NCBI RefSeq assembly: GCF_003334385.1
Contig: NZ_QOWN01000037.1
Strand: one strand, 5' to 3'
DNA from: Escherichia coli
GTDB taxonomy: Bacteria > Pseudomonadota > Gammaproteobacteria > Enterobacterales > Enterobacteriaceae
DNA: 42,441 bases
In this document: one piece after another, positions 8,984 to 9,607 of the stretch
Numbering within the stretch: position 1 is the stretch's first letter
How the letters are laid out: each line of letters starts with the position of its first letter
The notes under the pieces: model-generated
What the model was told of the DNA's origin: nothing
The model's database searches: none
Seen by the model: the letters and a program-made list of their open reading frames with translations, nothing else
Position numbers and translations under genes: made by a program

Positions 8984-9607
8984 ATGTCATCAATCCGCTT
9001 AACTACGAGAATGAAAGAGGAAATCGCTCGTAACGCTTTAATTAAGTCTGGGGTTTTCACTGAACTTGAAGAAGTAACAAAGTTAAAGAACCAGCTTGCA
9101 CTTGACGCCAGAGTTATTGCGTTTGGCGGTAAAAAGAAAACTGAGGAAGTGGATCATTTATATTCCAAGTTAGTAGCTATAAGTGAAGAACTTGAAAAAC
9201 TGGGATGTTCATTTTACTCATACGATGTTCGTTCTACTTCAATTTATCTGACTGTATCTGGCAGAAGGGTTGGATGGCATTCATATGGGAAAGACGGCAA
9301 CGGCGAAGATATATTGCTCCCTACTCCGACCAAAGATAAATGCATGTTTGACGCAGAGCACGAAATAACAAAAAGGTTTGATGAAATCTGCGCATTGCAA
9401 CAAAAACTTGAAGCCAAGAAAAAGGATATCGAATCAAATGTATGGGCTGCTTTAAACTCAGTCACAACAGTTAAGCGACTTATTGAAGTTTGGCCTGAAA
9501 GCAAAGAATTGCTACCAAAAGAAGCAGATAAAGCAAGTACAGCACTTCCTGCTTTACGGGTAGAAGATTTGAATAAGATGATTGGACTTCCTTCCGAGGC
9601 CGCATAG
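8984..9607 (+). CDS. Hypothetical early protein (207 aa)
   Basis: Track ORF 8924..9607; start chosen at ATG 8984 (MSSIRLTTRMKEE...) with GAGGAA upstream. No recognised motif. Confidence 0.5.
   Translation: MSSIRLTTRMKEEIARNALIKSGVFTELEEVTKLKNQLALDARVIAFGGKKKTEEVDHLYSKLVAISEELEKLGCSFYSYDVRSTSIYLTVSGRRVGWHSYGKDGNGEDILLPTPTKDKCMFDAEHEITKRFDEICALQQKLEAKKKDIESNVWAALNSVTTVKRLIEVWPESKELLPKEADKASTALPALRVEDLNKMIGLPSEAA

Follow-up and report, generated by a model that had tools for sequence, protein, structure and literature searches.

Assignment of a pL-operon gene from a lambda-like Escherichia coli prophage to the Nmad5 family

The 207-residue protein encoded downstream of N in this lambda-like prophage is almost certainly, judging from its profile matches, a standard member of the Nmad5 family (Pfam PF18757, PHROG 1965). 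The gene is already catalogued, both as a sequence and as part of a family, and its identification is in that sense ordinary. Our best guess at its role, offered tentatively, is that Nmad5 acts by binding and not as an enzyme, as an early accessory or counter-defence protein. Throughout this report, "the window" denotes the whole stretch of DNA analyzed, 42,441 nucleotides of E. coli contig NZ_QOWN01000037.1. The features discussed are collected in Table 1.

Table 1. Features in and around the nmad5 cassette (window coordinates).
Feature	Position	Strand	Basis or remark
N-like antiterminator ORF, upstream pL gene	7868-8212	+	phrog_271
sieB-like gene for superinfection exclusion, located between N and nmad5	8234-8773	-	phrog_1301
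Left flank, near-identical to the lambda sieB-ral spacer	8798-8904	+	Alignment
nmad5 cassette (ca. 705 bp), without lambda counterpart, replacing orf28/ral	8905-9609	+	Alignments with lambda, ral, empty and two-gene slots
Shine-Dalgarno-like GAGAGGA	8971-8977	+	Read from the sequence; kept in related loci
nmad5 coding sequence, 207 aa	8984-9607	+	Pfam PF18757 Nmad5; PHROG 1965; AlphaFold2 pLDDT 92
Small GC hairpin over the nmad5 stop codon	9596-9615	+	ral and phrog_2471 cassettes end alike (…GGCCTTT)
14-bp hairpin, perfect core 9652-9679	9650-9681	+	RNAfold; within the ral-ea10 spacer, directly 5' of the inferred PreS start
Putative PreS/LPR1 homologue ending in tL2a	9680-9768	+	95% identity to the lambda spacer; published assignment; terminator scan
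ea10 homologue (DUF2528, PHROG 646), the "acidic protein" of the earlier note	9788-10156	+	Profile match
cIII thermoregulator at the start of cIII	10216-10274	+	Rfam RF01804, 88.5 bits

The gene and its family

The coding sequence runs for 207 codons on the plus strand, from an ATG at 8984 to a TAG at 9605-9607, and GAGAGGA sits 6 nt before the ATG. A longer reading from an in-frame TTG at 8924 (227 aa) was rejected; homologues from many genera open with M-x-R-L-T, which fits the ATG. A pN/pS of 0.39, calculated for 52 close E. coli prophage alleles, points to moderate purifying selection. Because the Pfam and PHROG models are both matched at full length, the family comprises 902 clusters, and pN/pS takes this value, the open reading frame is not a product of chance. 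A weak Rfam match to the ToxT 5' UTR thermometer was recorded on the minus strand at 9312-9390, inside the coding region; at 28 bits, compared to a gathering score of 81 (E 0.095), it was dismissed as a chance match.

In the Pfam search, residues 4-203 were aligned to positions 1-206 of the 206-position Nmad5 model (E 1.7e-71, 241 bits), and in the PHROG search residues 3-207 were aligned to positions 2-208 of the 208 in PHROG 1965 (E 3.7e-83). Near-identical proteins (96-99%) carry the name "Nmad5 family putative nucleotide modification protein" at NCBI and UniProt, and the function entry for PHROG 1965 is "unknown". An exhaustive HMMER search, clustered at 50% identity, sized the family at 902 representatives, almost all of them 180-230 aa long. 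The window protein is likewise a stand-alone single domain, and relatives of 180-230 aa contain PF18757 only; no domain fusions were found in a profile search of 5.8 billion proteins, in which PF18757 stood alone in each of the best 120 relatives. An NCBIfam scan of the window protein gave no match, and PADLOC-DB 2.0, which holds models of defence and candidate defence systems, returned no family at E up to 0.1. Full-text literature on Nmad5 is sparse, with only four papers naming it; what the DefensePredictor paper calls the "NMAD" domain proved to be Nmad2 and was discarded as a source on Nmad5.

The signature residues of the family, each of them kept by 90% or more of 83 diverse Nmad5 members, are all present in the window protein: R5, R43, G48-G49, G93, T162, L166, W170-P171-E172, L176, P178, P189, L196-N197, G201 and P203. 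The conserved C-terminal module of the family reads TTVK[K/R]L..WPE..ELLP ... LPA....DLN..IGLP. Conserved positions are mostly G, P, L, W and A, the polar ones being limited to R5, R43, T162, E172 and N197. When the close members were left out, the alignment held no conserved stretch usable for searching.

Membership in the Ral family of antirestriction proteins was also considered. In tblastn searches, lambda Ral (66 aa) never matched nmad5; it matched only a separate upstream gene (in 13 loci). No Ral family appeared among the Pfam or PHROG matches of the window protein.

The earlier note had described a well-supported ORF with a ribosome-binding site, and the coordinates, the GAGAGGA element and the full-length family matches all bear this out. 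Its remark that the protein has no recognizable motif does not hold, because the whole protein is the Pfam Nmad5 domain and is named as such by NCBI. "Uncharacterised" is apt for the function of this accessory gene; the protein is nevertheless classified. By the note's own account, assignment to a known family of routine function would have refuted its reading; the family is indeed known, but no established or routine function goes with it.

The pL operon, the cassette slot and the PreS spacer

In the window, a cI-like repressor is followed by a small membrane protein, the N-like gene, sieB, nmad5, ea10/DUF2528, cIII and kil, then by Erf, SSB and Abc2, and the region runs on to xis and int. 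For comparison, the lambda order is N, sieB, orf28/ral, ea10, cIII, kil, gam and bet. The proposal that the gene lies in the slot of ral/sieB-type accessory genes was thus confirmed, with nmad5 at the lambda orf28/ral position between sieB and ea10. Its description as the first pL gene after N was right in that it is the next plus-strand gene, although sieB, on the minus strand, physically intervenes. No sigma-70-like promoter was detected on the plus strand between N and nmad5, and because of this the gene product is most likely a delayed-early pL protein that would be silent in the lysogen. In lambda, N-modified RNA polymerase passes the tL terminators, and unmodified transcripts end there.

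Two further features of this region were recorded. A 122-aa predicted membrane protein (PHROG 6534, no function given) is encoded at 6980-7348, directly after the cI-like repressor, and occupies the position of lambda rexA/rexB. A terminator-like hairpin (10 pairs, 7 of them GC) lies on the minus strand at 8200-8227, immediately beyond sieB, and shares sequence with the N ORF at its 3' end.

A 1-kb query comprising the gene and its flanks (8800-9800) found at least a partial match in 2,257 of 5,426 complete E. coli genomes, and at least 80% of it was covered in 193 of the 5,426. The initial locus scan yielded near-identical E. coli prophages only. For the comparison of slots, window positions 8774-9790 were set against loci L008, L009, L174, L175, L176 and L087. 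The interval from sieB to PreS is a hypervariable array of cassettes: the slot is empty in strain fEC.1 and elsewhere holds ral alone, an 83-aa PHROG 2471 gene, PHROG 2471 with nmad5, PHROG 1372 with PHROG 1636, ral with nmad5, or nmad5 with two small genes. Within this array, nmad5 is one of several swappable genes. The cassettes tend to open with CTTATTTGAG and a ribosome-binding site and to close with GGCCTTT, preceded by a GC hairpin that spans the stop codon.

In 13 of 80 near-identical viral loci, ral lies ca. 40 nt upstream of nmad5, and in a few of the 80 additional small genes separate nmad5 from the spacer. The idea that nmad5 and ral strictly exclude each other was rejected, given that the two stand in tandem in those 13 loci; Nmad5 is a neighbour of Ral, not a strict replacement for it. 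Like Nmad5, lambda Ral is a small, dispensable early protein of the same pL accessory array, but the two have no similarity in sequence or size (66 vs. 207 aa).

Damaged copies of the gene are found among these phages. For 48 records of Stx2a-converting phages, the tblastn match was partial, covering residues 34-207 only. One representative of the 48 was inspected (phage Stx2_06E050, locus L007, positions 1589-3525), and there an IS3-family element, with an orfA of 108 aa and an orfB of 296 aa on the strand opposite to nmad5, splits the gene after ca. codon 33. Of the 49 protein variants encoded by the close alleles, 2 are interrupted by internal stops. At locus L087 (5986-6624), an internal stop divides nmad5 into ORFs of 59 and 152 aa; ral lies upstream of it, and downstream, before a remnant of PreS, come two more small genes of 98 and 52 aa. 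Because of the IS-split copies in Stx2a phages and the alleles with internal stops, nmad5 is regarded as dispensable.

The spacer downstream of nmad5 has a well-described counterpart. In lambda, the ral-ea10 spacer is the source of the Hfq-dependent sRNA LPR1/PreS, the 3' end of which is the early-left terminator tL2a; this RNA is ca. 88 nt long, is processed to ca. 68 nt, is found in the lytic cycle only, and raises translation of the host dnaN (10.1101/2024.10.31.621285). The assignment is also covered in a review (PMC12197685). Over ca. 190 aligned nt, the window spacer (9610-9787) is about 95% identical to that of lambda, with few substitutions (e.g. A for G in the terminator loop). The hairpin-bearing spacer folds at z = -5.7, and the terminator scan identified a stem at 9742-9759 followed by a run of six T at 9762-9767. 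If 88 nt are counted back from the T-run, the 5' end of PreS would fall near 9680, directly after the 14-bp hairpin. The PreS spacer follows the gene, wholly or in part, in all 80 related nmad5 loci; in 55 of the 80, at least 150 nt of it are retained, beginning ca. 6 nt past the nmad5 stop codon.

The hairpin at 9652-9679 and the terminator at 9742-9767, which had been reported after the gene, are both real according to RNAfold and the terminator scan. As read from the alignment, they are the PreS/tL2a portion of the lambda backbone and not specific to the cassette, because the spacer is so nearly identical to that of lambda and is present whichever cassette lies upstream. What had been taken as a sign that nmad5 may be regulated differently from the acidic protein is only the usual lambda arrangement. 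PreS/tL2a is a separate element downstream of nmad5 and no part of the protein gene, and a hairpin and terminator following such cassettes should be annotated as PreS sRNA/tL2a and not as a cassette-specific regulator.

Predicted structure and distant relatives

An AlphaFold2 model was calculated from an alignment of 83 diverse homologues. The model was confident (pLDDT 92, pTM 0.83) and mostly helical. Its N-terminal part features three long helices (residues 8-72), a small beta-hairpin region (86-100) and another long helix (127-158). Two short helices then bear the T162...W170-P171-E172...L176-x-P178 motif, and a disordered linker (185-189) leads to a short terminal helix that contains L196-N197...G201-x-P203. 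A fused dimer was modeled using a 30-aa Gly-Ser linker and an alignment of 20 rows; it had a pTM of 0.61 and a mean pLDDT of 76.7, and its tails were less confident.

The monomer model had no significant match to a solved or characterized enzyme or DNA-binding fold, and sequence and profile searches of the PDB with the window protein returned nothing. Of the two kinds of search that the earlier note had proposed, then, the profile searches placed the protein in Nmad5, whereas the structural search matched no characterized fold. Neither the conserved residues nor the model presented a recognizable catalytic constellation or nucleotide-binding fold. The pI is 6.4 for the window protein, and the family median is 7.8; on charge, the protein was rejected both as an acidic DNA mimic and as a basic DNA binder. 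Weak PHROG matches to "DNA polymerase" and "RecE-like" entries (E 0.06-0.1) were dismissed as chance matches between long helices.

The closest copy in an isolated phage is gp37 of phage mEp235 (mEp235_037), which is of equal length and 97.6% identical. There, too, the gene belongs to the pL operon, with N/Nun before it and cIII after it, and it is to be regarded as the same gene; the flanks differ in that Nun is upstream and both sieB and ea10 are missing. Homologues from Stx1 phages also number among the closest known family members. In Pseudomonas phage M6, gp56 is an Nmad5 protein of 186 aa with 22-27% identity to the window protein (PHROG 1965 at E 2.4e-50). It is encoded amid genes for aGPT-Pplase, 5-hmdU kinase, radical SAM, PLP and hydroxymethylase proteins (the 5-NedU cluster), none of which is found near the window gene. 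Specifically, it lies between aGPT-Pplase1 and the pyrimidine hydroxymethylase, and a homologue from SN1 is located in the same thymidine hypermodification cluster (PMC9476957). When the M6 pathway was studied in vitro, the proteins employed were gp51-gp55, and gp56 goes unmentioned (PMC8989533).

Other contexts are varied. In Klebsiella phage Pylas, nmad5 is found between the gene for thymidylate synthase and those for a PD-(D/E)XK exonuclease, primase, Sak4 and SSB; in Vibrio phage Athena1, it comes just before an O-like initiator; and in eiAU its neighbour is a helicase-primase. In Dhillonvirus, a virulent phage, it is antisense within the head-morphogenesis genes (loci L005, 3152-4297, and L172, 1033-1797). 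The Dhillonvirus proteins are 254-381 aa long, with an expanded middle, and are 33% identical to the window protein over its residues 103-203. In one Dhillonvirus record, the annotated nmad5 CDS overlaps the neighbouring gp8 CDS. The family is well represented in strictly virulent phages, among them M6, Pylas and Dhillonvirus. Contigs retrieved by exact protein match were only 1.2-1.4 kb long, and one metagenomic neighbour of nmad5 is DUF4406.

When the neighbours were clustered across 80 diverse viral loci (22 lineages at 60% identity), no conserved partner gene of nmad5 was found. The neighbours that recurred in the 22 lineages, which were named by eye from representative sequences, were a cI-like repressor, PolA, a DUF2800 nuclease, DUF2815, a ParB-like protein, an SNF2-type helicase, O/P-like proteins, RecT/YqaJ, SSB and VRR-NUC. 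This recurrent neighbourhood is simply the early replication/recombination region. A nucleotide-modifying enzyme was not a conserved neighbour in the 22 lineages, and no recognizable modification enzyme was found in the 16.8 kb of prophage within the window. The association of nmad5 with modification genes holds in M6-like phages only; it is contextual and does not define the sequence.

One experimental result bears on the family. In Dhillonvirus, substitution K296E (SMS22) or K216E (SM_A8) in Nmad5 led to escape from the Tmn defence; deletion of the gene did not lead to escape, and its cloning was toxic (PMC11846954). The authors of that study read the change in Nmad5 through DNA modification (PMC11846954). 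K216 of SM_A8 aligns with R165 of the window protein, within the conserved TTVK[K/R]L..WPE motif, and this position is K or R in 66 of the 83 sequences. Thus, one charge reversal in a conserved Nmad5 motif alters the outcome of defence in Dhillonvirus.

Possible functions and significance

On the reading that we tentatively prefer, Nmad5 would be made only after derepression, from N-antiterminated transcription of pL, as lambda biology suggests. It would act as a binding or adaptor protein and not as an enzyme, with the C-terminal module as its most conserved surface, and early in infection would engage a component of the host, of a defence system or of DNA transactions. Like Ral, which often lies next to it, it would thereby be an accessory factor for host takeover or counter-defence that the phage can do without. 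We favour a binding or adaptor role because the fold and the conserved residues appear non-enzymatic, the protein stands alone, the gene is dispensable, early and located in the Ral array beside sieB, and a change in its conserved motif is connected with Tmn escape. Several points tell against this reading. Adjacency to ral is a weak pointer, as most other cassettes of the array are also of no known function; the Dhillonvirus result is a gain of function in a protein that is 33% identical over the C-terminal half only; and PADLOC and other defence and anti-defence models gave no match. The protein may instead be an enzyme with a new fold and an active site of the R/R/T/E/N residues. The context in virulent phages, among replication and nucleotide-metabolism genes, fits a role in DNA metabolism equally well.

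Such a role has been considered in the form of a replication or recombination factor, in which Nmad5 would bind DNA or an SSB, polymerase, helicase or annealase and aid phage DNA metabolism. The recurrent neighbours in the 22 lineages, the surroundings of the gene in Pylas and Athena1, and its position upstream of Erf, SSB and Abc2 in the window are all consistent with this proposal, and weak, non-significant matches to "DNA polymerase" entries recur. We nonetheless regard it as rather unlikely: no single partner is conserved, phages relying on the host replisome carry the gene just as phages with their own PolA do, IS-split and nonsense alleles mark it as dispensable, the protein does not have the charge bias of a DNA binder, and the polymerase matches are long-helix matches below significance. 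Base modification, with Nmad5 as an enzyme or as a cofactor or targeting subunit of a phage hypermodification enzyme or (in the manner of Ral) of a host methyltransferase, appears quite improbable to us. It is suggested by the location of M6 gp56 and its SN1 homologue inside a thymidine hypermodification cluster (PMC9476957), by the thymidylate synthase gene that adjoins the Pylas copy and the single metagenomic DUF4406 neighbour, and by the adjacency of ral in many lambdoid loci, Ral being reported to enhance the modification activity of restriction systems (10.1101/2024.10.31.621285). However, modification enzymes are neither visible in the prophage nor conserved among the lineages, the M6 pathway was studied in vitro using gp51-gp55 with no mention of gp56 (PMC8989533), and Nmad5 has neither an enzyme-like fold nor a set of catalytic residues.

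Protection of the lysogen from other phages, as by the neighbouring sieB, is very unlikely. The gene does lie beside sieB in a region rich in morons, and the Dhillonvirus homologue is placed like a moron, antisense in the head genes, and was toxic on cloning (PMC11846954). Yet no promoter of its own was detected for nmad5, which follows N in the repressed pL operon; the family is also well represented among strictly virulent phages; and PADLOC gave no match. A broader and more speculative form of the preferred binding-protein reading, which we consider unlikely, is that Nmad5 is a widespread non-enzymatic counter-defence protein or "modification-helper" with a new fold, binding and redirecting a DNA-modifying or defence protein of host or phage via the K/R-L..WPE..ELLP...DLN..IGLP module. 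If this were true, the protein would serve in Ral-like restriction alleviation or the neutralization of an NTPase defence (Tmn) in lambdoid phages and in the targeting of hypermodification enzymes in M6-like phages, and two unrelated contexts would be unified.

The name Nmad5 implies base modification, and the evidence gathered here gives no support for that as a general property of the family. The window gene matters as an entry point to a large family that spans temperate and virulent phages of many bacterial groups. Because nmad5 lies in the ral/PreS accessory array, is dispensable, and encodes a conserved motif tied to Tmn escape, the family is experimentally tractable in lambda-like phages.
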